NCBI RefSeq assembly: GCF_000179635.2
Contig: NC_014833.1
Coordinates: forward strand, 990,001-1,022,000
Direction: 5' to 3'
Source: Ruminococcus albus 7 = DSM 20455
GTDB taxonomy: Bacteria; Bacillota; Clostridia; Oscillospirales; Ruminococcaceae
DNA length: 32,000 bases
Shown here: positions 1 through 27,791 of the stretch, one piece after another
Numbering within the stretch: position 1 is the stretch's first letter
How the letters are laid out: every line of letters starts with the position of its first letter
The notes under the pieces: generated by a model
What the model saw: the letters and a program-made list of their open reading frames with translations, nothing else
What the model was told of the DNA's origin: nothing
Databases searched by the model: none
Translations under genes and position numbers: made by a program

Positions 1-939
1 GACGGGACTTCTATGGGGATCATGTTGAGGGATTTCCTGGATCTGTATCAAGGACATGAGGTGAAAGAACCTCCATACAATTACCGCGACTTTACCCTCT
101 GGCAAAATGAATTCAAACAGTCCGCATTCAAGCTGAAACAGGATGATTACTGGAGAGAAGAACTGCGGGATATAGTTAATTTTGAGTCTACACTGCCATT
201 GGATTTCGATCGTCCGAAAGTTCGTACAAATGAAGGTGATCTCTATGAGATGGTATTTGATGCAGAGTTTACGAGAAGGCTCAAGCAATTTGCAGGTGAT
301 CAGAAATGCACTCTGAATATTCTGCTGTTGTCCGCGCTGTTTCTGGTGCTGGGCAGATGCAATCATCAGGATACTGTTGTGATAGGTATGCCTATCTCAG
401 GCAGACACGGTGATGATCAGCATCGTATAATCGGAATGTTTGTGAATATGCTCATTATCAAGATTCATCTGGATCCGGATATGTCATATCTTCAAATGCT
501 GGATTCACTTAAAAGGAAAGCATTCCGTGCATACGAGAATCAGGATTCACAATTCAATGATGTAACAGAGATGATGGAATTTGAGCGCGAAGCCAACAAA
601 AATCCATTCTTTGATCTGGTATTTGCATTGCAGGAGATCGATATCCCGCGTCTGGAATTGCCTGAACTGACATTCACTTCACAAAATCTGGATATGTCCT
701 CGAAATTTGATCTGGTTTGTACCGCTTATGGAATGGGCGATGAGATCAGACTTTCGATGCGCTACTGGATCCGTATTTTCAAGGAGGAGACCGTTAAGCA
801 GATCATGCAGGATTTCCGAGAAATCCTCGGTGAGATCCTGGATTCACCGGACAGAAAACTGTCCGTGATCGGAATGCGGAGCATGGAGAAGCTGCAGAAG
901 GACACCACTTTTGATGAGATCAATTTTTCATTTGATTAA
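1..939 (+). CDS. NRPS condensation (C) domain, C-terminal ~310 aa; 5' end truncated by the window edge
   Basis: The frame is open from nt 1 (DGTSMGIML...), which fits the DG of the HHxxxDG core motif followed by the rest of a C domain (YNYRDFTLWQNEF, LPLDFDRP, GMPISGRHG, MFVNML). Ends in an acidic/aromatic tail, FDEINFSFD*. Confidence 0.85.
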   Translation, partial: DGTSMGIMLRDFLDLYQGHEVKEPPYNYRDFTLWQNEFKQSAFKLKQDDYWREELRDIVNFESTLPLDFDRPKVRTNEGDLYEMVFDAEFTRRLKQFAGDQKCTLNILLLSALFLVLGRCNHQDTVVIGMPISGRHGDDQHRIIGMFVNMLIIKIHLDPDMSYLQMLDSLKRKAFRAYENQDSQFNDVTEMMEFEREANKNPFFDLVFALQEIDIPRLELPELTFTSQNLDMSSKFDLVCTAYGMGDEIRLSMRYWIRIFKEETVKQIMQDFREILGEILDSPDRKLSVIGMRSMEKLQKDTTFDEINFSFD

Positions 940-966
940 ACCATTCAAATGATCCGGAGGTATTAC

Positions 967-3900
967 ATGAAACATTTATATGAACAAGAGGTACTGCTTT
1001 CTGATCCCGGCCTTCAGGATGAGATCAGTTTCTGGGAAGAGCAGTTTAAAGGTGAATGGGAACTGTCGGAGATAAGGGCAGAAGCAAACGAAAACGAAAT
1101 GGGTTTCCGTGAGATCCGTTTTGAACTTGAAGCGAAAGCTGCTCAGCGTCTTCACGAGATATGCAGAGGATCGGCACAGGCAGAATATATTGTTTTTCTG
1201 AGTATTGTATCTGTGCTGGTTTCACGCTATACAGCGCTCCCGGATGCGGCATTCAGTGTCCCTCTGATGACACATGATCCAGATCAGATAAACGATTATC
1301 TGCTGCTGCATACGGAGATCGATCCCACGGATACGCTTAAATCACTGCTTAAACGCGTCACAGCCAATATTAAAGAGCTGTACGCACATCAGAATGCACC
1401 ACTGCTGGCACTTCTGAAAAGAAACGGACGCATCAGCAGCAGCGAATATGTTATGAAGATCTGTGTGTGCAGTGAATTGCTGCAGGATAAAGGGATCTTT
1501 GAAAAACATGGATGCGGGGTAGGTTTTTCGATACTGACGAAGGATCATAATACGACAGCGGGTATCACTTATCGCAAGGATTTGTATCCTCAGTCCATGA
1601 TGGATACAATGGCAGATGTTTTGCAGGATCTTTGCTGTGAGATGATCATGCATCCTGATCAGCGTGTGAAGGATCTCCGACTGCTGGGAGATGAAAAAAT
1701 CACAGACAGTATGTTCTGGGGTGAGCAGTTTCAGTATGAACCTGTCGGATTTTTGCAAAAATTCCGTGAACACGTACAGGCACATCCAGAAAAAAATGCT
1801 TTGATAGACGATACCTGCAGCTATACATACGAAAAGTTGGACCGATTTTCAAATCAGATCGCTCATTTTGTTAAAAACTATGCTTCGGGACAAACGGAGG
1901 AGCGCGTTGGTATACTGATAGAAAACTCCGTGCTGCAGGCGGCTGCTGTACTGGGTGTCATGAAATCCGGATGCGTATATGTGCCGATCGATGTCAAGCT
2001 GCCTTTTGACCGTATAAGAGTCATGCTGGAGGATGCATCGATCTCTGTAGTCCTTACTACCTCACGCTATCTGGATATGGTGAATAAACTTCAGTGGGAG
2101 TGCAGTACGTTCCGTACGTATGCTTGCCTTGACCGCGATGATCTGTACGAACTGGAGGAGATCCACTCCAATCCGCTTATGAACAAGAACATATGGAATA
2201 TAGTTGCCCGCAGTGCACAGGACAGCATAGGGCAAGGCGGATGGACAAGTTCCTACACAGGTGAATTGTTCTCCGAACAGGAGATGAACGAATACAGTGA
2301 GAATACTGTACGAAAACTGATCCCTTATCTCACAAAGGATACCCGTGTGCTTGAGATCGGCTGTGCATCAGGACTGACAATGTTCCGTATCGCTCCGTAT
2401 GTCTGCTATTATTACGGTACTGATCTTTCGGAAGAAACCATTCGTAAAAATCTTGAATATATCGAACAGGAGAAAATATCCAATATCGGGCTGGAAGCAG
2501 TGCCTGCTGATCTTATCGGTCAGATAGCGCAGAAGGACTTTGATATAGTGATCATCAACAGTGTGATCCAGTGTTTCAATGGATATAATTATCTGCGAAA
2601 GGTTTTGAAACAAGCTGTTTCCCGCATGAAACCCAAGGGGATACTGTATCTGGGAGACTTGATGGATCAGGACAGAAAGGCGGCGCTGATAGACTCTCTG
2701 AAAGCATATCAGAAGATCGATCCGAGTGCGAAGACCGACTGGTCGGAGGAACTGTTTATATCAGCCGATTTTCTGCGTGATCTTCGTTTTGAGATGCCTG
2801 TCATCACACAGGTGGATACATCTGATAAATACTACACTATTGAGAACGAACTGACTATGTTCCGGTTTGATGCTATACTGCATATCGATCAGAATAACAC
2901 AAGCATCCCCGCAGGGACAAAAACCAGAAATCAATTCGGTATCGGGGAGATCCTCTCCGAGGATCCAATGGCGCCCGAAACGTTGCCGGAACTGGATGCC
3001 ACTGCATATATGATATATACCAGTGGCACCACCGGACTTCCCAAGGGTGTTATGCTTTCGCACCGTTCTTTGGAGAATCTCTGCGTATACAGCCGTGAAG
3101 CTTTTGCGATGCATGAAGACAACAGAATGACACGCTATGCGAATTTTGCATTCGATGCATCAGTCTGGGAACTGTTACCATCACTGTATGCAGGCGGTAC
3201 GGTATTTGTATTGCCGGATTCACTGCGTTATGATATGAAACGTCTTTCTGCATTCTTTGCAGATCATCAGATCACCCATTCATTCCTGCCGACACAGGTC
3301 GCTGAGCAGTTTATGGAACTGGATCATACATCGCTTCAATGCCTGTTGGTGGGCGGTGATAAGCTCACAAATATCCATCGTGTTCCATATCGCGTGTTCA
3401 ATAATTATGGCCCTGCTGAAAATACAGTAGTATCTACCACTTATCGTATCCGAGGAGATGAGCAGATCATTCCGATCGGCAGACCTATATTCAACACAGG
3501 TGTGATCGTGACTGACTGTTTCGGGCATCTTCTGCCGATGGGCGCAGTTGGTGAACTTTGCTGCCTTGGCAGAGGTGTAGCTAAGGGATATCTGAACAAC
3601 GAAACGGAAATGAAAAAGCGATTTGTTCGCTGGAATTCAAGCGATATGATATGCTACAAAACAGGTGACAGAGGACGATACCTCTCTGACGGTAATCTGG
3701 AGTTTCTCGGACGCATTGATCGTCAGGTCAAGATACGCGGTTATCGCATCGAGATGGAGGAGATCCCGTCCACACTTCAAAAAAGCGGATATGTCAAGGA
3801 TATTGTTGTTAAGGCTCTGGAGGATCAGACACATAATACTTATCTGGCTGCTTACTATGTCTTGAAGGAAAGCTGCAGGGATATGGATGCAGAATTGCTG

Positions 3901-4284
3901 AAGGCTTATCTGCTGGAACATCTGCCGCATTATATGGTACCTGAAGTATGGGTGAAAATGGATGAGATCCCTCTGACAGCCAATGGAAAGGTTAATTATC
4001 AGGCTTTGCCACGTCCTGAAGTGACACGGAAATTATCTCAGGACAAACCGCGAAATGAAGAAGAAGCATACCTTTGCGCTGTGTGGAAAAAGATACTGGA
4101 ACGTGAGGATATCGGTATTTATGACAATTTCTTTGATCTGGGCGGAAATTCCCTGAAAGCGATCATGTCCATTTCGGAAATGTCGGATCACTGTGATCTG
4201 GAGATCGGAGATCTGTTCCTTTACCAGACTATCAGCGAACTGGCTGCATTTCTGAAGAAAGAAGGAAAGATCTATGGAGCATAA
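967..4284 (+). CDS. NRPS subunit: truncated C-like N-terminus, then an A domain interrupted by a SAM-methyltransferase, then a T (PCP) domain
   Basis: GGAGG at 956-960 lies 6 nt before ATG 967; the track start at 949 lacks an RBS. A-domain cores: KSGCVYVPID (A2, 1963-1992), YTSGTTGLPKG (A3, 3016-3048), FDASVWE (A4), NNYGPAENT (A5), GELCCLGRGVAKGYLN (A6), YKTGDRGRY (A7), GRIDRQVKIRGYRIEMEEI (A8), LPHYMVP and PLTANGKVN (A9/A10). MT motif I VLEIGCASG (2347-2373), plus FDIVIINSVIQCF and KPKGILYLGD, all lie between A2 and A3. T domain: FFDLGGNSLKA (GGNSL at 4141-4155). Confidence 0.95.
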   Translation: MKHLYEQEVLLSDPGLQDEISFWEEQFKGEWELSEIRAEANENEMGFREIRFELEAKAAQRLHEICRGSAQAEYIVFLSIVSVLVSRYTALPDAAFSVPLMTHDPDQINDYLLLHTEIDPTDTLKSLLKRVTANIKELYAHQNAPLLALLKRNGRISSSEYVMKICVCSELLQDKGIFEKHGCGVGFSILTKDHNTTAGITYRKDLYPQSMMDTMADVLQDLCCEMIMHPDQRVKDLRLLGDEKITDSMFWGEQFQYEPVGFLQKFREHVQAHPEKNALIDDTCSYTYEKLDRFSNQIAHFVKNYASGQTEERVGILIENSVLQAAAVLGVMKSGCVYVPIDVKLPFDRIRVMLEDASISVVLTTSRYLDMVNKLQWECSTFRTYACLDRDDLYELEEIHSNPLMNKNIWNIVARSAQDSIGQGGWTSSYTGELFSEQEMNEYSENTVRKLIPYLTKDTRVLEIGCASGLTMFRIAPYVCYYYGTDLSEETIRKNLEYIEQEKISNIGLEAVPADLIGQIAQKDFDIVIINSVIQCFNGYNYLRKVLKQAVSRMKPKGILYLGDLMDQDRKAALIDSLKAYQKIDPSAKTDWSEELFISADFLRDLRFEMPVITQVDTSDKYYTIENELTMFRFDAILHIDQNNTSIPAGTKTRNQFGIGEILSEDPMAPETLPELDATAYMIYTSGTTGLPKGVMLSHRSLENLCVYSREAFAMHEDNRMTRYANFAFDASVWELLPSLYAGGTVFVLPDSLRYDMKRLSAFFADHQITHSFLPTQVAEQFMELDHTSLQCLLVGGDKLTNIHRVPYRVFNNYGPAENTVVSTTYRIRGDEQIIPIGRPIFNTGVIVTDCFGHLLPMGAVGELCCLGRGVAKGYLNNETEMKKRFVRWNSSDMICYKTGDRGRYLSDGNLEFLGRIDRQVKIRGYRIEMEEIPSTLQKSGYVKDIVVKALEDQTHNTYLAAYYVLKESCRDMDAELLKAYLLEHLPHYMVPEVWVKMDEIPLTANGKVNYQALPRPEVTRKLSQDKPRNEEEAYLCAVWKKILEREDIGIYDNFFDLGGNSLKAIMSISEMSDHCDLEIGDLFLYQTISELAAFLKKEGKIYGA

Positions 4285-5848: not shown

Positions 5849-5904
5849 TAGCCGGTACGGTATATTTATAAGTCAGAATCAGCTTAACATCTGGAGGAGA
5901 AACT

Positions 5905-6663
5905 ATGTTAAAGCATTGGTTTAAATACGAAACAGAATACGAGCAGAAAAATGTAAATCTCATTTGTTTTTCCCACGCCGGAGGGAGTGCAAGAGCATAT
6001 ATTCCTTGGAAACAGTACCTCCCCATAGAAGTCGGACTGCTGCCTGTGCAGCTTCCGATGCGTGAAAACCGCATTAGGGATAAGATGCCGGAAAACATCC
6101 AGAGCATTGTAAAACAGATCGTTGATGAAAATACTGAAGTCTTCAAAAAGCCCTTTGCACTTTTCGGACACAGTCTGGGCTCATTCTTCGCCTTTGAAAC
6201 GGCTGTCTATTGTCAGGAAAATCTTGGAGTAGAACCTGAGGCGATGTTCGTTTCAGGGACGGTCGACCCTGCGCATTCAAAGGAAAAAGGAAAGATGCTG
6301 GATCTGGATGACGGTAAACTGCTGCGTACTCTCCTGAACTTCGACGGAACGGAGCAGCAGCTTCTGGAAAACAAAAGCTTCCGTGATTACCTGCTGCCGA
6401 TCCTCAGAACAGATTTCAGACTGTTCAGGGAATACAAGAACACAGCGCAGCAAGTCCATTGTCCTATTTACAGTTACAGTGGCTCGCGAGATCCGTTTGC
6501 TATGACAGGAGAAGTTGAGAAATGGCGAAATTTTACCAATGCCCAGTATAGCCATAAGGAATTCACAGGAGGGCATTTCTATATGAACCAGCATACGGAG
6601 GAGCTTTGTCATGATATTCTCCGCAAGCTGAAACTGACAGGAGGGATCCGAAATGCAGTCTGA
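5905..6663 (+). CDS. Type II (editing) thioesterase, alpha/beta-hydrolase
   Basis: 252 aa. LICFSHAGGSA near the N-terminus and nucleophile elbow GHSLG (6166-6180), the typical size and layout of NRPS/PKS TEII proteins. GGAGGAG RBS upstream. Confidence 0.9.
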   Translation: MLKHWFKYETEYEQKNVNLICFSHAGGSARAYIPWKQYLPIEVGLLPVQLPMRENRIRDKMPENIQSIVKQIVDENTEVFKKPFALFGHSLGSFFAFETAVYCQENLGVEPEAMFVSGTVDPAHSKEKGKMLDLDDGKLLRTLLNFDGTEQQLLENKSFRDYLLPILRTDFRLFREYKNTAQQVHCPIYSYSGSRDPFAMTGEVEKWRNFTNAQYSHKEFTGGHFYMNQHTEELCHDILRKLKLTGGIRNAV

Positions 6664-9094
6664 ACAGCAATGGCTGCCGTCTGATGCTGAACATATATCC
6701 GGCAGCACGATACAGCGAGCCAATTTTGCATTGGATAAAGAACTTTCCGATGCTTTGCTTGCTATATCCAATGGAAAAAGCGCTGTCCTGAAAATCCTGA
6801 TCTGGACAGCATACAATATTTTTCTGAACCGGCTGACAGGACAGAAACAAGTAATATGCAGGTTGTATCAAAAAGGAGATCTGTGTTCCTATACAGTGGA
6901 TATTGACGAAACGCGAACCATTCGGGAACAGCTGAATTATCAGTTGAAGCTCTGGAAATGTGAAGATACTGCTAATGACGGAATGATAGGCGCTGCGATA
7001 CTGATGCAGAATGAAATAAAGGATACGGAAAGTCCTTACAGTATTGTGTACAGCAGCGATACGGTAAGCTGGATATATAACGAAGCATCATATTCAAAGG
7101 AACGTATCAGATACTATGGTGAAAAATACCTTAAGATCCTTCGTGAAATCCTGGTTGATCAGTATATTCCTATCAGCAGTATCGAATGGTATGATCAGGA
7201 AGAGCTGGAAGCATTTTCACGTTCGGAAAACGGCTTCAGGAAGGCGATAGATAGTTCTGGATCATTTCTTGTACGTTTGCAGAAACAAGCGCAGGCATCA
7301 CCTGAACGTATCGCAGTTTTTCATCGTGACGGGAATGTGACCTATCACGAATTGCTATGTATGGCGGAGCATATACGACAGGAACTTTTGCGCAGCGGCT
7401 GCGGTGCGAAGGAAAAGATCGCTGTATTCTGTGCACATCGTCCGTTCACTATTGCTGCGATCGTTGCTATTGCAGCAATTGGGGCATTTTATGTTCCTGT
7501 GGATGACCGCACACCACCACAGCGAGTTCAGGAACTCTTGACTGAAAATCGTATCCGTGTTCTTTTATGCGAATCGGGGGACAGTCCGCAGGCAGATGGG
7601 ATCTGTATCCTGCAGGTCTCTTTGGATCGCACTGAGATACCCATTCCTCCTGCAGAAGATGAGCAGACAGGATATGTGATCTTTACTTCCGGAACTACAG
7701 GAAAACCCAAGGGCATCCTGATCGATGAACCTAAGCTTATGAACCTGTGTGTCTGGTATGCAGAAACCTTCGGGATAGATCAGAACAGCCGTGTGATGCT
7801 CCTCAATAACTTTAATTTCGATGCATCAATAAAAAATCTGTACACGCCGTTGATGCAGGGAGCTGCTGTGGTATGCACGAAGAATGGTTTGTTCAATACA
7901 TTTGAGATCATTGAAGATATACGTCAGTTTCAGGTCACGCATATAAACTGTGTCCCTTCGCTGATGGCAGCCATTCTGGATACTGCAAGACATGAGAATT
8001 TCAGACATCTTGAAAGTGTACAGGACACAATTCTGGGCGGTGACGTATTTGAATGCGGACCGCTGCGTCTTTGGGCAGGTGCGGAGAATTGTCACAGTAC
8101 ATTTGCTAATGTCTATGGCCCTGCAGAATGCACCAGTGTTTCTACCTTCTGCTGTATTGATCGGAGCGAAGTGCTTCAATCTGATAAAACGCCGATCGGA
8201 AGACCGATCTATAATAAAAACGTCTATGTACTTAATGATACACTGCGGCGTGTTCCGATGGGAACAGTCGGGCAGATATTTATTTCAGGCTTAGGGGTGA
8301 TCACTGGGTATGAAACCGCAGTGAATGAGCAGGCACGTTTTATGCAGGCTCCCTGGGATTCAGATGAGCTGTTGTATGCAACAGGAGATCTTGGTGCATG
8401 GGATGAAAACGGAGAACTATTGTATTTTGGAAGAAACGATAATCAGCTGAAAGTCAACGGACAAAGGATCGAAGCGGAAGAATTGGAGATCCGTGCGCAG
8501 TCGTGCAGAGAGATCGAATCCTGCATAGTACGTCTTTGGAAAGATGAAGGCAACAATGGACATCTTGTGCTGTACTATACTGTAAGTCCCGGAGTCAAGG
8601 GGACAGCAAAAGAAGAGATACGTTCATATCTTCGCAGTATTTTCCCGCCGTCACTGGTGCCTCAGCAGTATGTCTGCCTGGAAAAGCTTCCGTTGACAGC
8701 AAATGGCAAAAAGGACAGAGATCATCTTCCGATGCCTGTGCAGGAACACACAGAACCTTGCATTTCTGATGCAAGCGAGCTGGAACAGAAGATACTTGAG
8801 GCGTGGAGACTTACACTTAACAGGCAGGATATTTCACTCAAGGAACATTTTTTTGAAGCCGGCGGTTCATCGCTTCTGCTATATAAGTTAAAATCAGAGA
8901 TCGACCGTATCCTTGGTACGGACATCGAACTTGTATCGCTGCTCAATTATACAACGGTGAAGGAACAGGCAGTCTGGCTTTCCGGAAAGGATGAAGTTAA
9001 GACCGCAACGCTACAGTCTGAACCTGAGATCATGATACAGCGCAGCCAGATCCGCTCTAAGAGAAAACAACTGTTGAGAGGAGGGAAACCTTGA
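6653..9094 (+). CDS. NRPS subunit: truncated C-like N-terminus, A domain, T domain
   Basis: Overlaps the TEII stop by 11 nt, with a GGAGGG RBS. A cores: FTSGTTGKPKG (A3), FNFDASIKN (A4), NVYGPAECT (A5), GQIFISGLGVITGYE (A6), YATGDLGAW (A7), GRNDNQLKVNGQRIEAEELE (A8), LPLTANGKKD (A10). T: FFEAGGSSLLLYKL. Basic C-terminal tail. Confidence 0.93.
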   Translation: MQSEQQWLPSDAEHISGSTIQRANFALDKELSDALLAISNGKSAVLKILIWTAYNIFLNRLTGQKQVICRLYQKGDLCSYTVDIDETRTIREQLNYQLKLWKCEDTANDGMIGAAILMQNEIKDTESPYSIVYSSDTVSWIYNEASYSKERIRYYGEKYLKILREILVDQYIPISSIEWYDQEELEAFSRSENGFRKAIDSSGSFLVRLQKQAQASPERIAVFHRDGNVTYHELLCMAEHIRQELLRSGCGAKEKIAVFCAHRPFTIAAIVAIAAIGAFYVPVDDRTPPQRVQELLTENRIRVLLCESGDSPQADGICILQVSLDRTEIPIPPAEDEQTGYVIFTSGTTGKPKGILIDEPKLMNLCVWYAETFGIDQNSRVMLLNNFNFDASIKNLYTPLMQGAAVVCTKNGLFNTFEIIEDIRQFQVTHINCVPSLMAAILDTARHENFRHLESVQDTILGGDVFECGPLRLWAGAENCHSTFANVYGPAECTSVSTFCCIDRSEVLQSDKTPIGRPIYNKNVYVLNDTLRRVPMGTVGQIFISGLGVITGYETAVNEQARFMQAPWDSDELLYATGDLGAWDENGELLYFGRNDNQLKVNGQRIEAEELEIRAQSCREIESCIVRLWKDEGNNGHLVLYYTVSPGVKGTAKEEIRSYLRSIFPPSLVPQQYVCLEKLPLTANGKKDRDHLPMPVQEHTEPCISDASELEQKILEAWRLTLNRQDISLKEHFFEAGGSSLLLYKLKSEIDRILGTDIELVSLLNYTTVKEQAVWLSGKDEVKTATLQSEPEIMIQRSQIRSKRKQLLRGGKP

Positions 9095-11118
9095 AATTTG
9101 ATGAAATTGCCGTGATCGGAATGAGCTGTTGTTTCCCTAAGGCAGATACGATCGATTCCTTCCGCACTATGCTCTGTGAGGGCAAGGATGCTGTGCGAAG
9201 GATCTCTCAAAATAAGAAGTCAAGATACGGATACACTGACAGGATAGATGAGAAAGAATATGCTTTTCTGGAAACCGAAGATCATTTTGATCCGGAATTT
9301 TTTGGAATTTCTGAAACCGAAGCACTGGAACTCACCGCTGTTGGACGAAATCTTCTGAAGCTTTGCGTGCAGGCGGTTGAACAAGCCGGCTATTCGTTGG
9401 ATGAACTGAAAGAACATCGCACCGGTCTGATAGTGAGTCTGTCTGAAGAAGAACTGACTGATCAGACAGATCTGCTGTCAGGAAAAGGCGGAATGGTGCT
9501 TGGTAAGATCGCACATTATCTTGGGGGCATTCATAAGGCTTATCTCGTAGATACGACTTGTACTTCGGCTTTGACGGCGATCCATCAGGCTTGCACTGAG
9601 CTGAGGGCAGATGAATGCGATATGGTAATTGCTGCATCATTTCATCTGACGCAGTTTCGGAATACTCCCCAGGGCTATCGCTGTGTGGAGGAACTGACGA
9701 AGATCGCATCACCGGATTTCCGCTCCTATCCGTTCCAGGAGCGTGCGAACGGAACGGGGATCGGTGAAGGCGGCGGTGCTGTTTTACTGAAACGAATATC
9801 GGATGCCATCAGAGATCGTGATTCTGTCGATGCAGTCATCTGTGGGTCTTCAATGGCTTACACAGGAAGTGAAAAGACAGATCTTTCGATCCCTGAGGAA
9901 CGTACGCTGCTCAGGAATGTGACGGAAGCTATGAAGTATGCCGATGTTAAAGTATCGCAGATAGGTTCCATTGAAGCGCATGGGACAGGTACAAAGATCG
10001 GTGATGCCATAGAGCTCCAGGCTTATGCAAAGGCATTGACAGGCAGTGAAAGGAAATGCAGGATCACTGCTGTCAAATCCAACATCGGTCATCTGGAACA
10101 TGCTGCCGGCATGGCATCATTTATTAAAATGGTCCTGCAAGTATCAGAGGGTAAGCATTATCCGATCTGTGGTTTTCATGATAAAACTACAGCAGTAGCA
10201 TGGGAGAACTCAACCCTGCTGCCTTGTGATACACTTCTTGATTGGGATGAGGAGGAACGCTTTGGTATTGTAGGAAGCTATGCGATGAACGGCAGCTGTG
10301 TACATATGGTGATGCGGAACGCCAAGAAACAGCAGGTAGATGAAGTTGTGCAGCGTCCTTGTGTTCTTCGGCTTTCTGCACAAGCGCATGATCTTCTTGA
10401 AAAACTGATCGACTCATGCTGTACAGCACTTGGAAGTTTACCGCAGCAGGATCTGGCTGATTTTGCATTCACCATGAATACTGGTCGTCCAAAATGCAAA
10501 TATACAGCAGCAGTCACAGGTTCTACCTGTGAGGAGATGATACAAGCCTTACACAGCTGTCAAACGGAAAAGATCACAGAACGGCTGAAAGCAACAACAG
10601 TCGTTTTATTGTGTTCAGGATCGGGAGAAACAAAAGCACAGACTCCTGAAGAATATGTCAAGGAGAAATTCAGGCAGATCAGTTACTTGAGAGATCTGGG
10701 CATCCCGGTCCATTCGGTGCTGGGATGCGGTCTGGGTAATGTTGTTGTAAGACATTGGCAGAATAACAGCATATCGGATGAAGAACTGCAGAGTGATATA
10801 GAACGTTGGAAAGATCAGAATGGCTGTAATGAAGAAAAATTTCTACAGTATATACACAAACAGACATCTGGCGGGGCTGTTATCTATCTGACCGCAGAAG
10901 AAGGGCTGCTCGGCAGTCTTTTAGAGCATGACGGCACAGCGGAACTGGTACGGCTGGAGAAAATAGCAGGAGCGGAAAAACTCCTTCAGATACTTTGCAG
11001 CAAAGGTGCAGATATCGACTGGCATATGTATTACCGTACTACAGGTCAGCATCTTCGTCGTATCGCAGTCCCTGCCAGTCCGCTGAAAGACAAAATAATA
11101 TGGAGGAATATGCAGTGA
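9091..11118 (+). CDS. Type I PKS ketosynthase with KS-AT linker and a degenerate, truncated AT remnant
   Basis: The TTG start overlaps the upstream TGA (TTGA), with GAGAGGAGGG upstream. KS: IAVIGMSCCFP, active-site DTTCTSA (Cys codon 9559-9561), EAHGTGTKIGD and KSNIGHLEHAAG, so the C-H-H triad is intact. The final ~250 aa look like a linker plus the start of an AT, but with GCGLG (10723-10737) where GHSxG is expected. Confidence 0.93.
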   Translation: MKFDEIAVIGMSCCFPKADTIDSFRTMLCEGKDAVRRISQNKKSRYGYTDRIDEKEYAFLETEDHFDPEFFGISETEALELTAVGRNLLKLCVQAVEQAGYSLDELKEHRTGLIVSLSEEELTDQTDLLSGKGGMVLGKIAHYLGGIHKAYLVDTTCTSALTAIHQACTELRADECDMVIAASFHLTQFRNTPQGYRCVEELTKIASPDFRSYPFQERANGTGIGEGGGAVLLKRISDAIRDRDSVDAVICGSSMAYTGSEKTDLSIPEERTLLRNVTEAMKYADVKVSQIGSIEAHGTGTKIGDAIELQAYAKALTGSERKCRITAVKSNIGHLEHAAGMASFIKMVLQVSEGKHYPICGFHDKTTAVAWENSTLLPCDTLLDWDEEERFGIVGSYAMNGSCVHMVMRNAKKQQVDEVVQRPCVLRLSAQAHDLLEKLIDSCCTALGSLPQQDLADFAFTMNTGRPKCKYTAAVTGSTCEEMIQALHSCQTEKITERLKATTVVLLCSGSGETKAQTPEEYVKEKFRQISYLRDLGIPVHSVLGCGLGNVVVRHWQNNSISDEELQSDIERWKDQNGCNEEKFLQYIHKQTSGGAVIYLTAEEGLLGSLLEHDGTAELVRLEKIAGAEKLLQILCSKGADIDWHMYYRTTGQHLRRIAVPASPLKDKIIWRNMQ

Positions 11119-14100
11119 AGCAATTATTGTCAGTATTAAGATCGCTGTCACAGATCAAGGATCTGCGCGTTAAGCGAACAGAAAACGGTGAGACCGAGAT
11201 CTATCTGCTAGCAAAAGAGCCGGTTCCGGATGCGTACCTTTCCTATCTGAAACATCAGGAGCCGGATGCAGATACCATACGAATATATAAAGTGGATGAA
11301 GCTGCATTCTGCGGCATCAGCAGTGAACTGCAGGTATCTGTGGACGATCTCGAACAGGTACAGGCAAAGCTTTCTTCAAATGTCTTTTTTGAGCAGGAAT
11401 TCTTCCCGTGCGAGGATAATCTTTGTATTCCCGACCTTACGCAGTACCCGGTCAGCTTTGAGAACAAGGCTAACAGCAAAAAAGCTATCTGCCATGGACG
11501 CGGTGACATCAGTTCTGAACTTGAAAAATTCCGTATCGGAGATCTGTCGCAGTTCCTGTTTCGCGCTGCAAAGTCAGATCAGAAGGTCGTTTTCATCAAG
11601 GCAGACGGTTCAGTTACGGAAGAATCGTATTCACTCCTTCTGGAACGCGCTAAGCGTATTGCGATGCAGGTACGCAAGCTTCCATACGGCAATTATCCGG
11701 TCCTGATGTTTCAGTTTACCGATAATCAGGATTTTATAGAAACATTCTGGGGATGCGTCCTGTCGGGTATCGTTCCTGTGCCTGTGCAGACCTGTGCGAA
11801 TTATGGGATTGCTGATGCAAACACATCACGTGTTTATAATATCTGGAAGATCCTTGATAAACCCCCGATAATCACTTCGGATGCTCTTTACGGCAGTATG
11901 CTGGATATACAGGAAGTATATAAAGAACAGATGCAGATATTCCCGTTCAGCTGCCTGATGAAGGAGAACGATGAACCGTTTGAGCATATCGAACGCCCGA
12001 TCGACGATCTGGCACTTATCATGTTCACATCAGGTAGTACGGGATTGCCTAAAGGCGTTAAGCTTTCACATTTTAACCTGATCTCGCAGGTCATCGGTCA
12101 AGTATCACTGAACGGATTTACGTCCGCGGATATCAGTATGAACTGGATGCCGCTGACGCATGTAGGCGGTATCATTTATTTCCATCTTCGTGATGTGTAT
12201 CTGTGTGCCTTGCAGGTACATGTGGATACAGATCTGGTGCTGAAGAATCCGCTTTCATGGCTTGATATAATTGATGAGTACCGTGCGTGTATCACATGGT
12301 CACCGAATTTTGCATATAAACTGATCGTTGATGCACTGGAATGCGGCGATGTACACAAAGAATGGGATCTTTCCTGTATGCATACGTTCCTGGACGGCGG
12401 AGAAGCAGTAATAGCAGAAGTGGGACTTGCCTTCTTGAAGGGATTAAAACCATTCGGACTCAGGTCAACGGCATTCGTACCTAGTTATGGTATGTCGGAA
12501 ACATCATCTGGTGTCATATATTATTTCGGATTTAATGAGGATACTATCCGCCCGACTGATAATTTTGTACCTGTCGGTGAGATCGTTCCGGGTGACAGTG
12601 TGCGTATTGTCGATGAACACGATCAGCTCAAATGCGAAGGTGAGATCGGACGATTCCAGGTGAAAGGCAATACTATCACCAAGGGGTATTTCAATAACGA
12701 GAAGGCGACCCGTGAAAGTTATACTGAAGACGGCTGGTTCAATACCGGAGATCTTGCATTCATCAAAGACGGAATGCTTTCGATCACGGGACGTGAAAAG
12801 GATGTCATCATCATAAATGGTGTGAACTACTACAATCATGAGATCGAGAGCGAACTGGAAACTCTGCAGGAAGTCAGGAGTTCTTTCTGTGTGGCAGGTG
12901 CTGTCACCGTGGTACCCGGAACTCCGGAAAAACTTCTTATACTGTACAGTGCTCAGGAAATATCCGATGATGTACTGCTGGAGCAGTCTGATGATACTAT
13001 GGCGTACATTGATCGAGTAAATGAGAAGATACGTCGCGACCTTGCTAAAAACTTTAATCTGTTTCCTCATGATGTGGTTTGTATACCGTCATTTGAGATA
13101 CTTAAAACGGATATCGGCAAACTGCAGCGCAAAAAGATGATCGAACTGTACCTGAAGGGAATGTACAGAAAATATACCGACTCTGCTGCGGGAATATCCA
13201 CTTCGGAAACGGACGAGAAAAACAAACCGCTGATGACCAGGATCTGGCAGGAAAAGCCCTGCACCCATGAGGCGGAGCAGGACTGTACGGTACTTCTTGT
13301 CGGAACGATAAGGGGATCAATTCACTCTTTGATTGAAGATAATTATACTAAGGTACTTCCGTTCAGTAAATATGATACACTGCCTGCAGATACGCACGTA
13401 TCCGTGATCATGGACTTCGGACAGGACAGCGATATTCACACTAAGATCACCATTCTTCAGGATACTGTCCGCTCGCTGGAAGAATATGGACTTGATCGGG
13501 TAGTGCTAAATGTTTTCACAAGCGGAGGATTCTATGCAAAACCGGGAGACAGTGTGAATGAAAATGCTGTATTCAACGGGATCCTGCAAAGCTATCAGAT
13601 GGAAAACGGAAATATATTTGTCAAGCAGATCGATGTGGCGGAAGGCGATATGTTGCCGGGTGCTGAAGAGATCACGCAGACTAACGACCATGTTATAGTC
13701 TACCGCAGCGGTGTCAGATATGTTCCGTATCTTGTGTCAGCAGATGTGGATACATCTGTCACACAGCCGATCACAGAAGGCGGTCTTTATCTTGTTACCG
13801 GTATAACAGGCGGTGTGGGAAGAAAGATCACGTCCTTCCTGGCAAGAAACTATAACTGCCGTTTTATTGCTGTAGGCAGAAAGTCTGAGGAAGCTGCACG
13901 AGAGATATTCCGCAGCGAGCAAATGGATGAAAGTGTTCTTGCGTACCGAAACATCGAGCTTTCAGATACGGATCAGCTTTCTTCCTTTGTTGCTGATGCA
14001 GAGCAAATGGATGGAAGTACCCTCGCAGGTATACTGCATTTTGCAGGCAGCGTATCCGAACTGCATGGCGGCAGAGATCATTGGGAAGAGTTCCGATTGC

Positions 14101-15011
14101 ATTTTCTGGTATCCGAAACGATGGGATCCTTCGATGAGGCATTGGCGCCAAAGGGATATGCGGTTTCATCTCTTTGCAAGCTGCTTGAAGGCAGACCTGA
14201 TTGTCGTATGCTTCTGCTATCGTCGGTAAATGCATTTTTCGGAGGTTCCTCGCTTGCAGCTTATTCAGGTGCGAACAGTTTCCTTAATGAAATGGCATTG
14301 TCTTGTATGGAAAAGCATCCTCAGGTGTACTGCATCAATTTTGCAAATCTTTCTAATATAGGAATGTCAGCCGATATCCCCGACGGTCTTAAAGAATCAT
14401 CGAAGAAGAACGGTTTCTATTTGCTGACACTAGAAGAAGCAGCTAGCGTTATGTTGTATGTGCTGGCGCATCATATCCGTTTCTCGTTCTATGGCATCAA
14501 TTTACAGAATCGGAATATGCAGCAGTTCTGCTGCGAGCCGATGCAGCAGCGGATCATAGCTTATCTGCCCAAAGCACAGGAACCCGGACAGATCTCATCG
14601 ATCCTTGGCAATACCGCAGAACTTCGCTTTGGCAGGCTGGCTGACTATGAAGTTCGTATACAATCTCTTCACAGTCGTATGCCGCAGTTGGAGGCGTGGA
14701 AGGATACTCTGCGCAGCAGAGGATTATTTGCTTCGGCAAGCAGACTTCTTCAGCCGTCAACTGAAACAGAACAGGCAATTTATAACATCTGGAAAGAGGT
14801 ATTGCAGATCGAAGATTTCGGAATAGATAAGTCCTATTTCACCATTGGCGGAAACTCTCTGAACAGTTTCCGTACGCTTGAGAAGATGAACCGACATTTC
14901 AATACAGAACTGACAATAGCAGATTTCTTTACCTACAATTCGGTACAGGAGTTTGCTGAATTACTTGACCAAAGATCAAAGAATGACAATCAGGAGGAGG
15001 GCATGTTCTGA
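11100..15011 (+). CDS. Fatty-acyl-AMP-ligase-like adenylating domain, ketoreductase and carrier protein (tridomain, plus an N-terminal ~150 aa of unknown function)
   Basis: ATG 11100 (MEEYAVK) is preferred over the track start at 10995. FAAL-like motifs: MFTSGSTGLPKGVKLSH, NWMPLTHVGGII, SPNFAYKL, PSYGMSETS, GRFQVKGNTITKGYFN, WFNTGDLAF, GREKDVIIINGVNYYNHEIE, KTDIGKLQRKK. KR: VTGITGGVGRK (13797-13824) and SSVNAFFGGSSLAAYSGANSFL. Carrier: YFTIGGNSLNSF (GGNSL at 14848-14862). Confidence 0.9.
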   Translation: MEEYAVKQLLSVLRSLSQIKDLRVKRTENGETEIYLLAKEPVPDAYLSYLKHQEPDADTIRIYKVDEAAFCGISSELQVSVDDLEQVQAKLSSNVFFEQEFFPCEDNLCIPDLTQYPVSFENKANSKKAICHGRGDISSELEKFRIGDLSQFLFRAAKSDQKVVFIKADGSVTEESYSLLLERAKRIAMQVRKLPYGNYPVLMFQFTDNQDFIETFWGCVLSGIVPVPVQTCANYGIADANTSRVYNIWKILDKPPIITSDALYGSMLDIQEVYKEQMQIFPFSCLMKENDEPFEHIERPIDDLALIMFTSGSTGLPKGVKLSHFNLISQVIGQVSLNGFTSADISMNWMPLTHVGGIIYFHLRDVYLCALQVHVDTDLVLKNPLSWLDIIDEYRACITWSPNFAYKLIVDALECGDVHKEWDLSCMHTFLDGGEAVIAEVGLAFLKGLKPFGLRSTAFVPSYGMSETSSGVIYYFGFNEDTIRPTDNFVPVGEIVPGDSVRIVDEHDQLKCEGEIGRFQVKGNTITKGYFNNEKATRESYTEDGWFNTGDLAFIKDGMLSITGREKDVIIINGVNYYNHEIESELETLQEVRSSFCVAGAVTVVPGTPEKLLILYSAQEISDDVLLEQSDDTMAYIDRVNEKIRRDLAKNFNLFPHDVVCIPSFEILKTDIGKLQRKKMIELYLKGMYRKYTDSAAGISTSETDEKNKPLMTRIWQEKPCTHEAEQDCTVLLVGTIRGSIHSLIEDNYTKVLPFSKYDTLPADTHVSVIMDFGQDSDIHTKITILQDTVRSLEEYGLDRVVLNVFTSGGFYAKPGDSVNENAVFNGILQSYQMENGNIFVKQIDVAEGDMLPGAEEITQTNDHVIVYRSGVRYVPYLVSADVDTSVTQPITEGGLYLVTGITGGVGRKITSFLARNYNCRFIAVGRKSEEAAREIFRSEQMDESVLAYRNIELSDTDQLSSFVADAEQMDGSTLAGILHFAGSVSELHGGRDHWEEFRLHFLVSETMGSFDEALAPKGYAVSSLCKLLEGRPDCRMLLLSSVNAFFGGSSLAAYSGANSFLNEMALSCMEKHPQVYCINFANLSNIGMSADIPDGLKESSKKNGFYLLTLEEAASVMLYVLAHHIRFSFYGINLQNRNMQQFCCEPMQQRIIAYLPKAQEPGQISSILGNTAELRFGRLADYEVRIQSLHSRMPQLEAWKDTLRSRGLFASASRLLQPSTETEQAIYNIWKEVLQIEDFGIDKSYFTIGGNSLNSFRTLEKMNRHFNTELTIADFFTYNSVQEFAELLDQRSKNDNQEEGMF

Positions 15012-15033
15012 TGAAAGCCCGGAAGGAGCATAA

Positions 15034-16116
15034 ATGAAACGAATTGCCATATTAGGTGCATACGGGACAGTCGGACGTGAGGCACTGCAGCATCTGTACA
15101 GTACAGGGGATTATGAGTTATATGGGTTAGTCAGACAGCCTGAACGTGTGAAGGAGGATCCGTTCTTTGACGCTATGCCTGATGTCCGCTGGGAAAGGCT
15201 GGATATCACAGAGAATGAGCGATTGACTGATGCGATCTGCGGAATGGATGTTGTTCTGAATACAGTTTCCTGTTCAGGTAAGTACAGCAGAAAAATAGCA
15301 GAACTATGTGCCGAACGGAATACAGCCTATGTGGATGCAGGTATCCCGGATAATATCGGTGATCTGTCAGGACAGTCAGATAAAACTTTACTGTATGGCG
15401 CAGGTGCTTTGCCCGGATTGTCTTCAGTACTGGGGGTATATGCTGCACAGGGATTTGATACTGTCAGCGGATATCAGCACATCGCATCGATACACGGTGC
15501 ATTCTCGTACGGTGCAGCTTATGATTATCTGCGTGGTGTCAGCGGAGAATACGGCGGACATCCTGTGAAGAAAACGGAACTTCCTCTGCTGGGCTGTACT
15601 GAGATCATGCAGTATACAGATGACGAGACACACTATGTTCTGCAAAAGATCGGCTGTCCGGACGGAAAACATTATGTCACGCTCGGATCACGTAAGTTAT
15701 ATGCTACGATCGAACGGGCAGTTTTGCGCTTTGAATCAGATCCTGAAGGTGCAGCTCGTGAACTGGTGACTTACAGTCAGCTATACCGCGTTCGTTCTCA
15801 GGAACATATGGCATTCATTATAGAGGTGCAGGGGACAACGGAGCAAGGGATACAGCAGACGAGAACTCTGCTTATGAAATACGATTCAGCGGCAGCACTC
15901 ACAGGACTGTCTTCAGGACTTAGCACTGAAATTGCTGCAAATGCATCACAGCCGATAGGTGTATGCAGTCTGACACACTTCCCCGACGATCCGCTGTATG
16001 CCAAGGAAATGCCGCGGATACTTCGGGCGATCGATGAAAACAGACACAAGGTCGTATTTGAGACCTGCGCGTGCAGTATCAACGAGTGGATGCAGGAAAG
16101 TGAAGGGGAAATCTAA
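15034..16116 (+). CDS. Saccharopine-dehydrogenase-like NAD(P)-binding oxidoreductase
   Basis: N-terminal Rossmann motif IAILGAYGTVGREAL, then VVLNTVSCSG...AYVDAG and GAGALPGLSSVL, which resemble the Sacchrp_dh_NADP layout. GGAAGGAG RBS. Family assignment is by eye only. Confidence 0.65.
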   Translation: MKRIAILGAYGTVGREALQHLYSTGDYELYGLVRQPERVKEDPFFDAMPDVRWERLDITENERLTDAICGMDVVLNTVSCSGKYSRKIAELCAERNTAYVDAGIPDNIGDLSGQSDKTLLYGAGALPGLSSVLGVYAAQGFDTVSGYQHIASIHGAFSYGAAYDYLRGVSGEYGGHPVKKTELPLLGCTEIMQYTDDETHYVLQKIGCPDGKHYVTLGSRKLYATIERAVLRFESDPEGAARELVTYSQLYRVRSQEHMAFIIEVQGTTEQGIQQTRTLLMKYDSAAALTGLSSGLSTEIAANASQPIGVCSLTHFPDDPLYAKEMPRILRAIDENRHKVVFETCACSINEWMQESEGEI

Positions 16117-16134
16117 TGAAATCAGGAGGGCAAT

Positions 16135-19899: not shown

Positions 19900-19949
19900 A
19901 GTGTACATCTGTCATAAGACCTTATATTGCTCTGAAGGAGGAAAAAACA

Positions 19950-20624
19950 GTGTACTCTGAATTAACCGGTATTTGTCATGAAAAAGTGAAGTGTGATCCG
20001 TTTCTTGTGCTGTTTGATGCACAGACCATTACCGATGCACAGCTTGAGAAGTTGGAGAGTATACTGCCTCCGTATCGGGTGAAGTACGCTGAAAGATATC
20101 GTAAACGGGAAGACCGTGTAAACAGTATGGTTGCATTTGCAATGCTGGCATATCTGCTGAAGACCTGCTATCATACTCAGCTGCCACAGACGGAGCATAG
20201 GAACGCTTACGGAAAACCGCTTCTGGATGCACCCCTTCAGATGAGTATATCGCATTGTAGCTGCGCCGTATGCTGTGCTGTTGCATCAGGGGAGGTTGGT
20301 GTGGATGTGCAGGAACTTGTGACAGATTGTTCAGGGATCGCCGAATTGGTACTGTCAGGATCACAGTATGAAACCTATTGTGCTTCTGATGCACCTGAAC
20401 GATGTTTTACCGAATTCTGGACACAGAAAGAAGCATATCTGAAACTGCAGGGGACAGGACTGACCGATGATCTTTCACAAATTGATCCCATGATCTGTGC
20501 AGGATCACTGCAGCATAAAACTGTCTGGTACGATAATATCTGTATAAGTACTTGTTCCGAGAACCCGTTGGAGCATCGTATCATAACAGTGAATGAATTG
20601 CGTGCTGTGCTTCAGAGATCCTGA
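19950..20624 (+). CDS. Sfp-type 4'-phosphopantetheinyl transferase
   Basis: GTG start 8 nt after GAAGGAGG. Motifs: YGKPLL, SISHC, GVDVQE (20298-20315), FWTQKEAYLKLQGTG. Size of 224 aa is typical of the Sfp family. Confidence 0.85.
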   Translation: MYSELTGICHEKVKCDPFLVLFDAQTITDAQLEKLESILPPYRVKYAERYRKREDRVNSMVAFAMLAYLLKTCYHTQLPQTEHRNAYGKPLLDAPLQMSISHCSCAVCCAVASGEVGVDVQELVTDCSGIAELVLSGSQYETYCASDAPERCFTEFWTQKEAYLKLQGTGLTDDLSQIDPMICAGSLQHKTVWYDNICISTCSENPLEHRIITVNELRAVLQRS

Positions 20625-20788: not shown

Positions 20789-20817
20789 TTGACATTACTC
20801 CTTCAAAGTGATATTAT
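20789..20817 (+). promoter_or_regulatory. Sigma-70-like promoter for the ABC transporter operon
   Basis: TTGACA (20789-20794), 17-nt spacer, TATTAT (20812-20817). Lies about 80 nt upstream of ATG 20897. Confidence 0.45.
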
Positions 20818-20896
20818 ATTTTATGGTTAAGTACAACTAACCCGAACATAAGTGATCAAATCCCTTGTGTTTGATAAATATGAAGGAGAGTTAAAA

Positions 20897-26191: not shown

Positions 26192-26457
26192 ATGAAAACC
26201 TCGCTTATTGAAACGTTTCACTATATACAGTCAAATGATATAAGCAAAAAATCACATAGGCATAAAATTATTTGCAAAAAATATTGTAAATAATCTATGA
26301 ACGCATCCAAACGCGTTGATAAGTGTGGTATAACAGATCATAATATACCCGGGATCAGGCATATTTTTTCAGCCTTTCAATTATACACTAAATGCTCATA
26401 GTTGTAAAGATTAAAAGTATCAAAGCACTGCTGTACGTAAACTCCACAGATACTTCC

Positions 26458-26486: not shown

Positions 26487-26528
26487 GATATCAGCAAAAG
26501 CGCTTTTGTATCAGTACAAGGAGTGATA

Positions 26529-27762: not shown

Positions 27763-27791
27763 TTGACTAATTATTATTCGTGTAGTATAAT
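27763..27791 (+). promoter_or_regulatory. Sigma-70-like promoter for the secreted RTX/FN3 protein gene
   Basis: TTGACT (27763-27768), 17-nt spacer, TATAAT (27786-27791). AT-rich upstream region. Confidence 0.5.

Follow-up and report, generated by a model that had tools for sequence, protein, structure and literature searches.

We analysed a window of 32,000 nucleotides (nt) from Ruminococcus albus 7 (contig NC_014833.1, positions 990,001 to 1,022,000), of which nt 1-20624 are filled by ten plus-strand open reading frames (ORFs) of nonribosomal peptide synthetase (NRPS) and polyketide synthase (PKS) type. By exact-sequence look-up the window proteins are identical to ADU21406-ADU21419 of R. 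albus 7 (ATCC 27210), the cluster genes in the window matching ADU21406-ADU21413; identical cluster proteins were found in many independent R. albus sequencing runs. Domains were called with Pfam, equivalog models were those of NCBIfam, and structures were compared by phmmer against the PDB, AF2 modelling and Foldseek. The genes in the window are designated g1 to g9, and U1 to U4 are proteins encoded upstream of g1, the 3′ end of U4 lying inside the window. The domain order is the C-terminal part of a condensation (C) domain in U4, a half C domain followed by an adenylation (A) domain with a methyltransferase (MT) insertion and a carrier (T) domain in g1, T-C in g2, a type II thioesterase (TEII) in g3, C remnant-A-T in g4, a ketosynthase (KS) with its KS-AT (AT, acyltransferase) linker in g5, X-AMP-binding-KR-T (X, residues 1-143; KR, ketoreductase) in g6, an NAD(P) reductase in g7, TubC_N-Cy-A-T (Cy, heterocyclisation) in g8 and an Sfp-type phosphopantetheinyl transferase (PPTase) in g9, with Pfam E-values from 1e-8 to 1e-71. 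A, carrier, condensation/heterocyclisation and KS domains are thus encoded together with a PPTase (Pfam E 1e-8 to 1e-96). An earlier note on this DNA had described ten co-directional genes of a hybrid NRPS-PKS cluster, highly fragmented, with several relic domains and unusual split points within its modules. The ORF listing and Pfam agree with this description, with nearly every domain call in it and with its counts of four adenylating domains, five carriers, condensing C, C, Cy and KS domains and two MT insertions. Translational coupling, which it had proposed throughout, holds in the literal sense for four of the nine junctions, where the genes overlap (g1/g2 and g3/g4 by 11 nt, g4/g5 and g5/g6 by 4 nt); the rest are 9-56-nt spacers carrying GGAGG-type ribosome-binding sites. 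An Rfam scan of the window found no RNA family.

The cluster continues upstream of nt 1, as had been supposed. Contigs from Logan, ENA and NCBI that carry the same proteins add at least 25 kb; the operon is at least 45 kb long and intact, and the window holds its downstream ~24 kb. The upstream genes encode, in order, a large NRPS (...A-T-C-A(MT)-T), a Trep_Strep/MptD-type S component of an energy-coupling factor (ECF) transporter, CbiQ, a fused double ATPase, the stand-alone Cys-thioesterase U1, a KS-cMT-ACP protein, a C-T protein and the KS-ACP-C protein U4, whose 3′ end is window nt 1-939 (cMT, C-methyltransferase; ACP, acyl carrier protein). This content includes two further AT-less KS modules and two C domains. 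The small product predicted earlier is not upheld, because the operon runs this far upstream, with a large NRPS and three or more further proteins that bear carriers. The same upstream genes recur in a homologous cluster at 51-69% identity (contigs L022 and L013). Literature searches on R. albus and Ruminococcus NRPS/PKS found no paper on the R. albus cluster.

The last synthetase of the operon, g8 (ADU21412; 16135..19899, + strand), combines a beta-hairpin docking domain (betaHD; TubC_N, E 3.4e-10) with Cy, A(Cys) and T domains (Pfam Condensation, AMP-binding and PP-binding). Its TubC_N domain spans residues 10-57, and the alignment to EpoB takes in the EpoB docking domain. The Cy domain contains the motifs FVLTDVQQSYLMGR, EFIIADWTS and SQTPQVFID. 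Its core EFIIADWTS (residues 198-206) has the form ExxxxDxxS where DxxxxDxxS is canonical; the L014, L018 and Clostridium butyricum homologues keep the Glu, whereas the actinobacterial-looking L021 has Asp. Specificity codes were extracted by alignment to a GrsA reference that fits both the core motifs and the BmdB alignment. The g8 code, DLYNLSLIW, is a perfect Cys code and, together with the Cy motifs, confirms the Cys/heterocyclisation module of the earlier note. The best PDB relatives are BmdB (7LY7, E 4e-172), then FmoA3, PchE and EpoB, with PchE and the HMWP2 Cy domain among the best matches. Between a8 and a9/10, g8 has an MT-like insertion of ~160 residues (aa ~956-1115, nt ~19000-19479). 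Of class I MT profiles only the C-terminal half finds a match in it (E 4e-4), its SAM motif, ILIIGDEEFAG, is degenerate, and the L013 homologue lacks the insertion. Judged by these features, the insertion is a vestigial MT.

Immediately before g8 lies g7 (ADU21411; 15034..16116, + strand), encoding an NAD(P)-binding, saccharopine-dehydrogenase-like (SDH-like) oxidoreductase of ~360 residues (Sacchrp_dh_NADP, E 6.9e-8) with no NCBIfam match. Its AF2 model has a pLDDT of 86, lower in the tail. The best Foldseek matches, at a TM-score of ~0.65, are lysine 6-dehydrogenase, carboxyspermidine dehydrogenase and saccharopine reductase; as modelled, the nearest folds are those of enzymes handling C=N (Schiff-base/imine) intermediates. 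We rejected g7 as a homologue of the PchG/Irp3 reductases, since it has no GFO_IDH_MocA or Irp3-like_C match and another fold. A word-indexed search found ten homologues and a profile search 225 representatives at E <= 1e-30. The C. butyricum counterpart is 28% identical. In six of six contexts (the window, L013, L014, L018, L021 and the C. butyricum megaplasmid) a g7-type gene adjoins a TubC_N-Cy-A-T gene. An Irp3/PchG-type reductase stands beside the g7 homologues in L018, L021 and L027 and is also present in the C. butyricum megaplasmid context. No Irp3/PchG/YbtU-type reductase (GFO_IDH_MocA plus Irp3-like_C) occurs in the window, L013, L014, L015 or L022. With a g7-type enzyme and no Irp3-type reductase, the R. 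albus cluster would be the simplest natural system for a proposed non-Irp3 reduction.

By shared Pfam domain and gene context, g7 is assigned to the EqbM/SrbE/MchE family. EqbM is needed for equibactin activity when the pathway is reconstituted in E. coli (PMC3672683). SrbE of the sorangibactin cluster and its coelibactin counterpart have been called 'indispensable' and of 'yet unknown function' (PMC10127202), and MchE of the mupirochelin cluster is a further member in the literature. Two thiazolidines are present in sorangibactin, along with two MTs and two oxidoreductases, SrbI and SrbE, in its pathway (PMC10127202). These ring and reductase numbers are consistent with an SDH-like enzyme acting as a second thiazoline reductase, a conclusion that is ours and not that of the source. 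We rejected the EqbM/SrbE-type proteins as a plain Irp3 replacement throughout the family, distant relatives having both.

The end of g7 connects it to the assembly line. Its last five codons (16099..16113, + strand) encode SEGEI-COOH, a putative short linear docking motif (SLiM) recognised in the family tail alignment, in which G358, E359 and I360 are invariant or nearly so. G-x-[ILVFM]-COOH ends 145 of 158 family members, mostly as (E/D)EG(E/A/V)(I/L). T-terminated NRPS subunits of the same clusters end alike, and the tail variant co-varies within each cluster. In R. albus, g7 ends ...SEGEI and the large NRPS ...EIGEI (from the 99%-identical contig L025). The SDH-like and T-terminated NRPS proteins end, respectively, in ...NEGEI and ...ETGEI in L022/L013, in ...VEGEI and ...EEGEI in C. 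butyricum, and in ...DEGVL and ...EEGVL in L021. Irp3-like reductases are without such a tail. Similar tails occur on g6 (...QEEGMF) and, less closely, on U3 (...ESLMF) and the Cys-thioesterase U1 (...EIDEI), and the g8 docking hairpin has a basic beta2 strand, KIKYKA. TubC_N beta-hairpin docking domains bind the last five residues of C-terminal SLiMs via salt bridges, and such SLiMs are listed on 'oxidases' and on Cy, PCP and ACP domains (PMC9113145). We infer from these sequences that g7 is recruited to the g8 betaHD by its tail and acts on a g8-bound intermediate. The g8 TubC_N domain and the short acidic tails of its candidate partners resemble the SLiM-betaHD systems of tubulysin (TubC), epothilone (EpoB), rhabdopeptide (Kj12) and enacyloxin (Bamb_5915/5917). 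Unlike in those systems, the R. albus tail is found, besides carriers, on a family of free NAD(P) oxidoreductases.

Upstream of g7, g6 (11115..15011, + strand) encodes an X(1-143)-A-KR-T protein. Its best PDB relative is 6ULW, the A-KR-pseudoAsub-T structure of StsA (E 2e-128), to which both stretches align, the A stretch with 330 bits and the KR-to-T stretch with 97 bits. The loading A domain of McyG (4R0M, E 3e-115), an arylpropanoid loader, is nearly as close as StsA in PDB scores. The amino-group-binding FD (FDxS) motif is replaced by MPLTHVGG, where StsA has MPLDHIGG. The KR domain is called by Pfam at E 3e-18; the N-terminal 150 residues have no Pfam match at E <= 10. No segment of the cluster is better conserved than the g6 A domain, at 81% in a ~50%-identity homologue. 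The earlier call of a fatty acyl-AMP ligase (FAAL) does not hold. StsA and McyG score 390-430 bits against ~140 for true FAALs, the PDB FAALs reach only E 1e-38 to 1e-40, and the top NCBIfam matches, FAAL/FadD subfamily models, score 226 bits against cutoffs of 572-600. The sequence identifies g6 as an alpha-keto-acid-type adenylation/ketoreduction module and a probable alpha-hydroxy-acid loader; given its likeness to StsA, the expected unit is an alpha-hydroxy acid, not a fatty acyl group. g6 shares the A-domain and KR-to-T alignment and the replaced FD motif with StsA/CesA-type modules and the McyG loader. It is unlike StsA/CesA in lacking an upstream C domain for ester formation, in its 143-residue N-terminal extra region and in directly following a carrier-less KS. 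We know of no characterised precedent for a carrier-less KS encoded just upstream of a keto-acid A-KR-T protein. g6 is more likely a loader, or else an unprecedented partner of the KS g5.

That KS, g5 (ADU21409; 9091..11118, + strand; ketoacyl-synt, E 4.8e-46), is AT-less and consists of the KS, a KS-AT linker of CurL-like/RhiE-like type and a vestigial AT/post-AT linker. Its Cys-His-His triad is intact (DTTCTS, HGTGT, NIGH), as it is in the two upstream KS domains. All three KS domains have KAsynt_C_assoc and CurL/RhiE-like linker matches and no Acyl_transf_1 match, as in trans-AT-type modules; the absence of a functional AT from the window, noted before, is corroborated by Pfam. The AT relic was recognised by eye alone, with GCGLG instead of GHSxG followed by the post-AT linker, and the C-terminal 196 residues have no Pfam match even at E <= 10.

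The remaining synthetase subunits are divided between C and A domains. The window part of the 1253-residue KS-(AT relic)-ACP-C protein U4 (1..939, + strand; Condensation, E 6.6e-60) is the C-terminal 312 residues of its C domain, with the motif HHIIGD and the tail ...DEINFSFD. The complete gene lies at L015 6212-9973 and encodes KS, linker, PP-binding and Condensation domains in Pfam; a homologue search with the window fragment gave two weak matches only, its full-length parent not among them. g1 (967..4284, + strand) is a 1105-residue NRPS comprising a half C domain (profile positions 175-451 only), an A domain interrupted by an N-methyltransferase (N-MT) and a T domain. The ribosome-binding site and the public gene call make nt 967 the more likely start, rather than nt 949. 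Its specificity code, DAWFLGNVV, which we take to be the classic Leu code, substantiates the Leu module of the earlier note. The MT (~400-670, between A2 at aa ~340 and A3 at aa 691) holds all five type V motifs: QGGWTSSY, VLEIGCASG, YYYGTDLS, DIVIINSVIQCFNGYNYL and NELTMFRF. These were compared with the published table of type V backbone N-MT motifs, mb(a2-a3) i-iv and vi, including the Asn of the NSV motif (PMC8341866). With ~270 residues lying between a2 and a3, the insertion places g1 among the family 4 interrupted A domains (A2-M(V)-A3, e.g. TtbB), with the same MT place, size and motifs; it differs from the TtbB type in the coupling of the MT to a Leu code and in the half C domain in front. 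By these motifs the MT is an intact backbone N-MT, and the Leu code combined with it leads to the prediction that the module makes N-methyl-Leu.

g2 (ADU21406; 4274..5848, + strand) is a T-C didomain (PP-binding, E 1e-9; Condensation, E 1.3e-42) with the C motif HHLYSDE and the tail ...DEIEADFSF. g4 (6653..9094, + strand) has a C remnant of ~200 residues, sub-threshold in Pfam, before A and T domains; in a ~50%-identity homologue this remnant is 33% conserved versus 64% for the A domain. The relic calls made earlier were sound for the g1 half C domain, the g4 C fragment, the g8 MT insertion and, by eye only, the g5 AT. U4 and g2 are both C-ending proteins with similar tails (...DEINFSFD at nt 927-939 and ...DEIEADFSF at nt 5834-5845), and each precedes a protein beginning with a half-C remnant. 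These tails may constitute a second, uncharacterised docking pair.

The genes for release, activation and transport are as follows. g3 (ADU21407; 5905..6663, + strand; Thioesterase, E 3.9e-39) is a free-standing type II thioesterase that uses Ser as its nucleophile (GHSLG). U1, at L015 183-965, ~9 kb upstream of window nt 1, is a type II-like thioesterase, likewise free-standing, whose nucleophile is Cys (GHCAG); the Cys is kept in nine U1 homologues, one of them from R. champanellensis, and the U1-type tail in R. albus-type clusters is ...YEI(D/N)E(I/L). According to the literature, the sorangibactin and coelibactin thioesterases also use a Cys nucleophile. The earlier statement that a TE-I/R release domain is missing stands insofar as the window has no cis thioesterase (TE) or R domain; free thioesterases, g3 and U1, do exist. 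The PPTase g9 (ADU21413; 19950..20624, + strand; ACPS, E 5.2e-11) matches the NCBIfam AusB and HetI models below cutoff. Behind it come a MacB-type ABC ATPase (20852-21604, + strand; ABC_tran, E 5.7e-37) and an FtsX permease (ADU21415; 21617-23911, + strand; FtsX, E 6e-33), together a probable exporter by sequence. An ABC ATPase gene also follows the PPTase in L013, where the contig ends before a permease; L014 lacks the pair. Between the PPTase and ABC ATPase genes, a gap of 227 nt holds the strongest sigma-70-like promoter match of the region (20789-20817; TTGACA-17-TATTAT with an upstream TG, 11/12), so the exporter may be separately transcribed. The ECF cassette (Trep_Strep/MptD S component, CbiQ T component and fused double ABC ATPase; L025 2238-5015 and L022 7192-10004) sits in mid-operon; the L025 ATPase is called as two ORFs, possibly through a frameshift or assembly error. 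Since the ATPase follows Trep_Strep and CbiQ genes, it was taken as an ECF ATPase and discarded as an ABC-F resistance protein.

No characterised counterpart was found, every NCBIfam equivalog model scoring far below its cutoff against the window proteins. The claim of an architecture without known match is right to that extent; it fails for the toolkit of betaHD-Cy-A-T, EqbM/SrbE-type oxidoreductase, TEII, PPTase and MptD-type ECF transporter, which is common to equibactin, sorangibactin, coelibactin and clostridial thiazoline clusters. Among the closest systems are the Firmicutes thiazoline NRPS(-PKS) clusters with Cy-A(Cys)-T, namely equibactin (eqb, Streptococcus equi ICESe2) and its orphan relatives in C. 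kluyveri, in C. difficile (023_CTn1) and on the C. butyricum megaplasmid. These share with R. albus an EqbM-type oxidoreductase, TEII, in-cluster PPTase and an ABC/ECF-type transporter cassette. The eqbHIJ genes are needed for equibactin-dependent iron uptake (PMC3672683), EqbHIJ being described only as a putative ABC transporter. For the C. difficile cluster the annotation lists an ABC ATPase and a membrane protein besides an Ecf 'cobalt transporter'. C. butyricum has its SDH-like gene next to the betaHD-Cy-A-T gene, and a Trep_Strep/MptD ECF cassette accompanies the cluster, coming after these genes. In contrast to the equibactin type, R. albus shows no salicylate-type cap, Irp3/PchG-type reductase or DtxR-type regulator. 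It adds the keto-acid A-KR-T and N-methyl-Leu modules, three AT-less KS and a Cys-type free TE, and is far more fragmented.

Sorangibactin, coelibactin and mupirochelin likewise have an EqbM/SrbE-type oxidoreductase, the first two also a Cys-nucleophile TE like U1; unlike R. albus, these are Gram-negative or actinobacterial pure NRPS systems with a salicylate cap, P450, Irp3-type reductase and cis TE. In yersiniabactin and pyochelin biosynthesis the thiazoline is reduced in trans to a thiazolidine. Their systems (HMWP2/HMWP1/YbtU/YbtT and PchE/F/G) resemble R. albus in Cy-A-T with an MT-like A insertion, KS-cMT-ACP and TEII; the R. albus reductase differs in being saccharopine-reductase-like instead of Gfo/Idh/MocA in fold, and its cluster differs in having no cis AT, no aryl cap and many more subunits spread over several small proteins. 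The R. albus cluster is thus an orphan, fragmented relative of equibactin/yersiniabactin-type clusters, within known thiotemplate logic.

Taken together, these features suggest a hybrid assembly line in which a hydroxy acid from g6 and a thiazoline from g8 enter a methylated metallophore, with docked ring reduction by g7 and re-import through the ECF transporter; we consider this whole reading somewhat better supported than its denial. On this model, g6 would activate an alpha-keto acid and reduce it to a carrier-bound alpha-hydroxy acid. The full C domains ending U4 and g2 would work with the next-encoded A-T proteins, g1 and g4, whose half-C remnants would serve as structural platforms, and malonyl units would be loaded in trans by an AT encoded elsewhere. 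g8 would join the upstream acyl or peptidyl chain to Cys and cyclise it to a thiazoline. g7, taking the place of the Irp3/PchG-type reductase absent here, would dock on the g8 betaHD via its ...EGEI tail and reduce the carrier-bound C=N to a thiazolidine. Since relatives have a cis TE in the place corresponding to g8, this is probably the terminal module, and one or other of the free thioesterases would release the chain. The product would be a peptide-polyketide of medium size with hydroxyacyl and thiazoli(di)ne parts, methylated on N and C; most likely it is a metallophore that the in-cluster ECF transporter brings back into the cell, a role favoured by the in-operon cassette together with the toolkit shared with equibactin-type clusters. 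Two routes were set aside, a fully colinear one (large NRPS to U2 ... g5/g6 to g8) and one that begins with g6 and hands over to g8, as neither covers every carrier and tail.

A bolder generalisation is that EqbM/SrbE-type proteins form a second, non-Irp3 class of on-line thiazolinyl imine reductase, recruited to Cy modules via an (E/D)EGx(I/L)-COOH tail that mimics the upstream carrier tail and binds the betaHD, and that the R. albus product is a new hydroxyacyl-thiazolidine peptide-polyketide metallophore. We put this forward tentatively and would sooner expect it to need revision than to stand as worded.

Several observations pull against the assembly line just proposed. Every characterised relative pairs its EqbM/SrbE-type protein with an Irp3-type reductase, and the activity of these proteins may therefore differ from thiazoline reduction. 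SLiM-like tails occur on five proteins (large NRPS, g6, g7, U1, U3) and only one betaHD is visible, so that some tail likenesses may be coincidental. The g4 code, DAKNIGVSV, has no canonical match, Glu being nearest at five of nine positions. The carrier-less KS g5, the extra T of g2 and the loading of the U3 T domain fit no proposed step, and no AT gene was found in the ~55 kb inspected (L025, L015, the window and the homologous L022 and L013). The inspected sequence shows no metal-responsive regulator, aryl cap or substrate-binding protein, and the ECF cassette could import something unrelated. As to the cap, genes for aryl acids (salicylate/dihydroxybenzoate ligase, isochorismate enzymes) are missing from the window and the 25 kb upstream; L021 has them.

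One alternative is a different product, an antibiotic, toxin or signal, for which the MacB-type pump would provide export or self-resistance and the ECF transporter would handle unrelated cargo or immunity/uptake. The MacB-type ABC/FtsX pair follows the PPTase directly, no aryl cap, Irp3-type reductase or DtxR/Fur-type regulator was seen in 55 kb, and there are many more modules than in equibactin or pyochelin. N-methyl-Leu and hydroxy-acid units are usual in bioactive depsipeptide-like compounds, and R. champanellensis has a fragmented NRPS/PKS cluster with a MacB pump and without Cy. Set against this are the position of the ECF cassette inside the operon, its retention in the 51-69%-identity homologue and in clostridial thiazoline clusters, and the siderophore-type clusters in which the EqbM/SrbE-type genes of the literature lie. 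We take such a product to be possible, yet a good deal less than probable. It is also conceivable that g7 makes a precursor by reductive amination (e.g. the g4 amino acid or a polyamine), or performs some other redox step, and that the ring stays a thiazoline. Saccharopine reductase, carboxyspermidine dehydrogenase and lysine dehydrogenase do act on free amino acid or polyamine metabolites, characterised relatives already hold an Irp3-type reductase alongside the SDH-like protein, and the g4 code is without an assigned substrate. The family-wide tail, identical to those of NRPS carrier subunits near a betaHD, points instead to action on the assembly line, as does the abutting of the g7-type and betaHD-Cy-A-T genes in all six contexts. 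R. albus-type clusters offer no other candidate for ring reduction, and in sorangibactin the number of thiazolidines equals that of reductases. A precursor role for g7 therefore seems unlikely to us.

Two further explanations carry little weight. A small, FAAL-primed lipo-/hydroxyacyl-thiazoline-Leu product made essentially by the ten window genes would agree with the FAAL/FadD models that top the NCBIfam matches of g6, with the generic AMP-binding domain that is all Pfam sees there, and with the confirmed Leu and Cys codes; it is rendered highly improbable by the shortfall of those models (226 versus 600 bits), the much better StsA/McyG than FAAL scores, the alignment of KR-T to StsA as well, and the additional modules encoded upstream. 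Even less credence is due to the idea that the cluster is a decaying, non-functional remnant whose relics and splits reflect pseudogenisation. It does contain half-C remnants, a vestigial AT, a vestigial MT and one carrier-less KS; its relic regions evolve fast, and one relative has lost the g8 MT relic. Yet all frames and catalytic motifs are intact, four start/stop junctions overlap, and identical proteins recur in the independent R. albus runs. Moreover, gene order is kept in two other lineages at 78% and 51% identity, and conservation among relatives is 57-85% in the catalytic domains and 8-48% in the relic segments, a pattern of purifying selection. Because catalytic domains are conserved above relic regions, motifs are intact and synteny is kept, we argue for a functional operon, and on these sequence patterns the function of the cluster is likely retained.

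Some relatives and neighbours of the cluster deserve mention in their own right. Assembly GCA_024712465.1 (>1.5 million contigs; JAMQYI011500430.1, JAMQYI010182000.1) holds two relatives. One, L013/L022, is the syntenic cluster at 51-69% identity and has an extra S-adenosylmethionine synthetase gene before the PPTase gene; the other, L018, encodes SDH-like, Irp3-like, betaHD-Cy-A(MT)-T and KS-AT-ACP proteins. In L028/L029, of R. champanellensis type, a small and even more fragmented cluster encodes A-T, TE, KR, KS-linker, ACP, Cys-TE, ACP, TE and T-C-A-T proteins, also with a PPTase and a MacB-type pump and with no Cy domain. It may be typical of Ruminococcus that such clusters are extremely fragmented and have several free thioesterases.

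Past nt 24009 the genes of the window are unrelated to the cluster and the GC content falls. On the minus strand (24009-26221), an ECF-type sigma factor (184 residues, Sigma70_r4_2) overlaps by 1 nt a downstream gene for a 552-residue protein without Pfam match, probably its anti-sigma factor. This region has the lowest GC content of the window (0.34-0.41), and the pair also stands beside the cluster in the R. albus contigs L007, L008 and L010. A 315-residue XRE-type helix-turn-helix protein (26523-27470, + strand) with a weak TPR match resembles Rgg/PlcR-type quorum regulators; its exact sequence is absent from a collection of 15 billion proteins in which the sequences of its neighbours are present. 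The 1078-residue protein ADU21419 (27861-31097, + strand) has RTX/haemolysin-type calcium-binding repeats and fibronectin type III domains, is preceded by a strong promoter-like site (27763-27791) and is >90% identical in many R. albus strains and rumen metagenomes.

Orphan clusters of hybrid type abound, and the novelty of this one lies in its unusual fragmented layout and some uncommon parts. In g1 and g4, nature has divided modules between C and A and kept half-C remnants. The analysis of g7 offers a candidate function and a recruitment mechanism for the EqbM/SrbE oxidoreductases, which published work has left unassigned. Little work has been done on the secondary metabolites that strictly anaerobic Clostridia of rumen and gut produce, and R. 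albus 7 is a model cellulolytic organism; a metallophore or antibiotic encoded by this cluster would bear on competition in the rumen.

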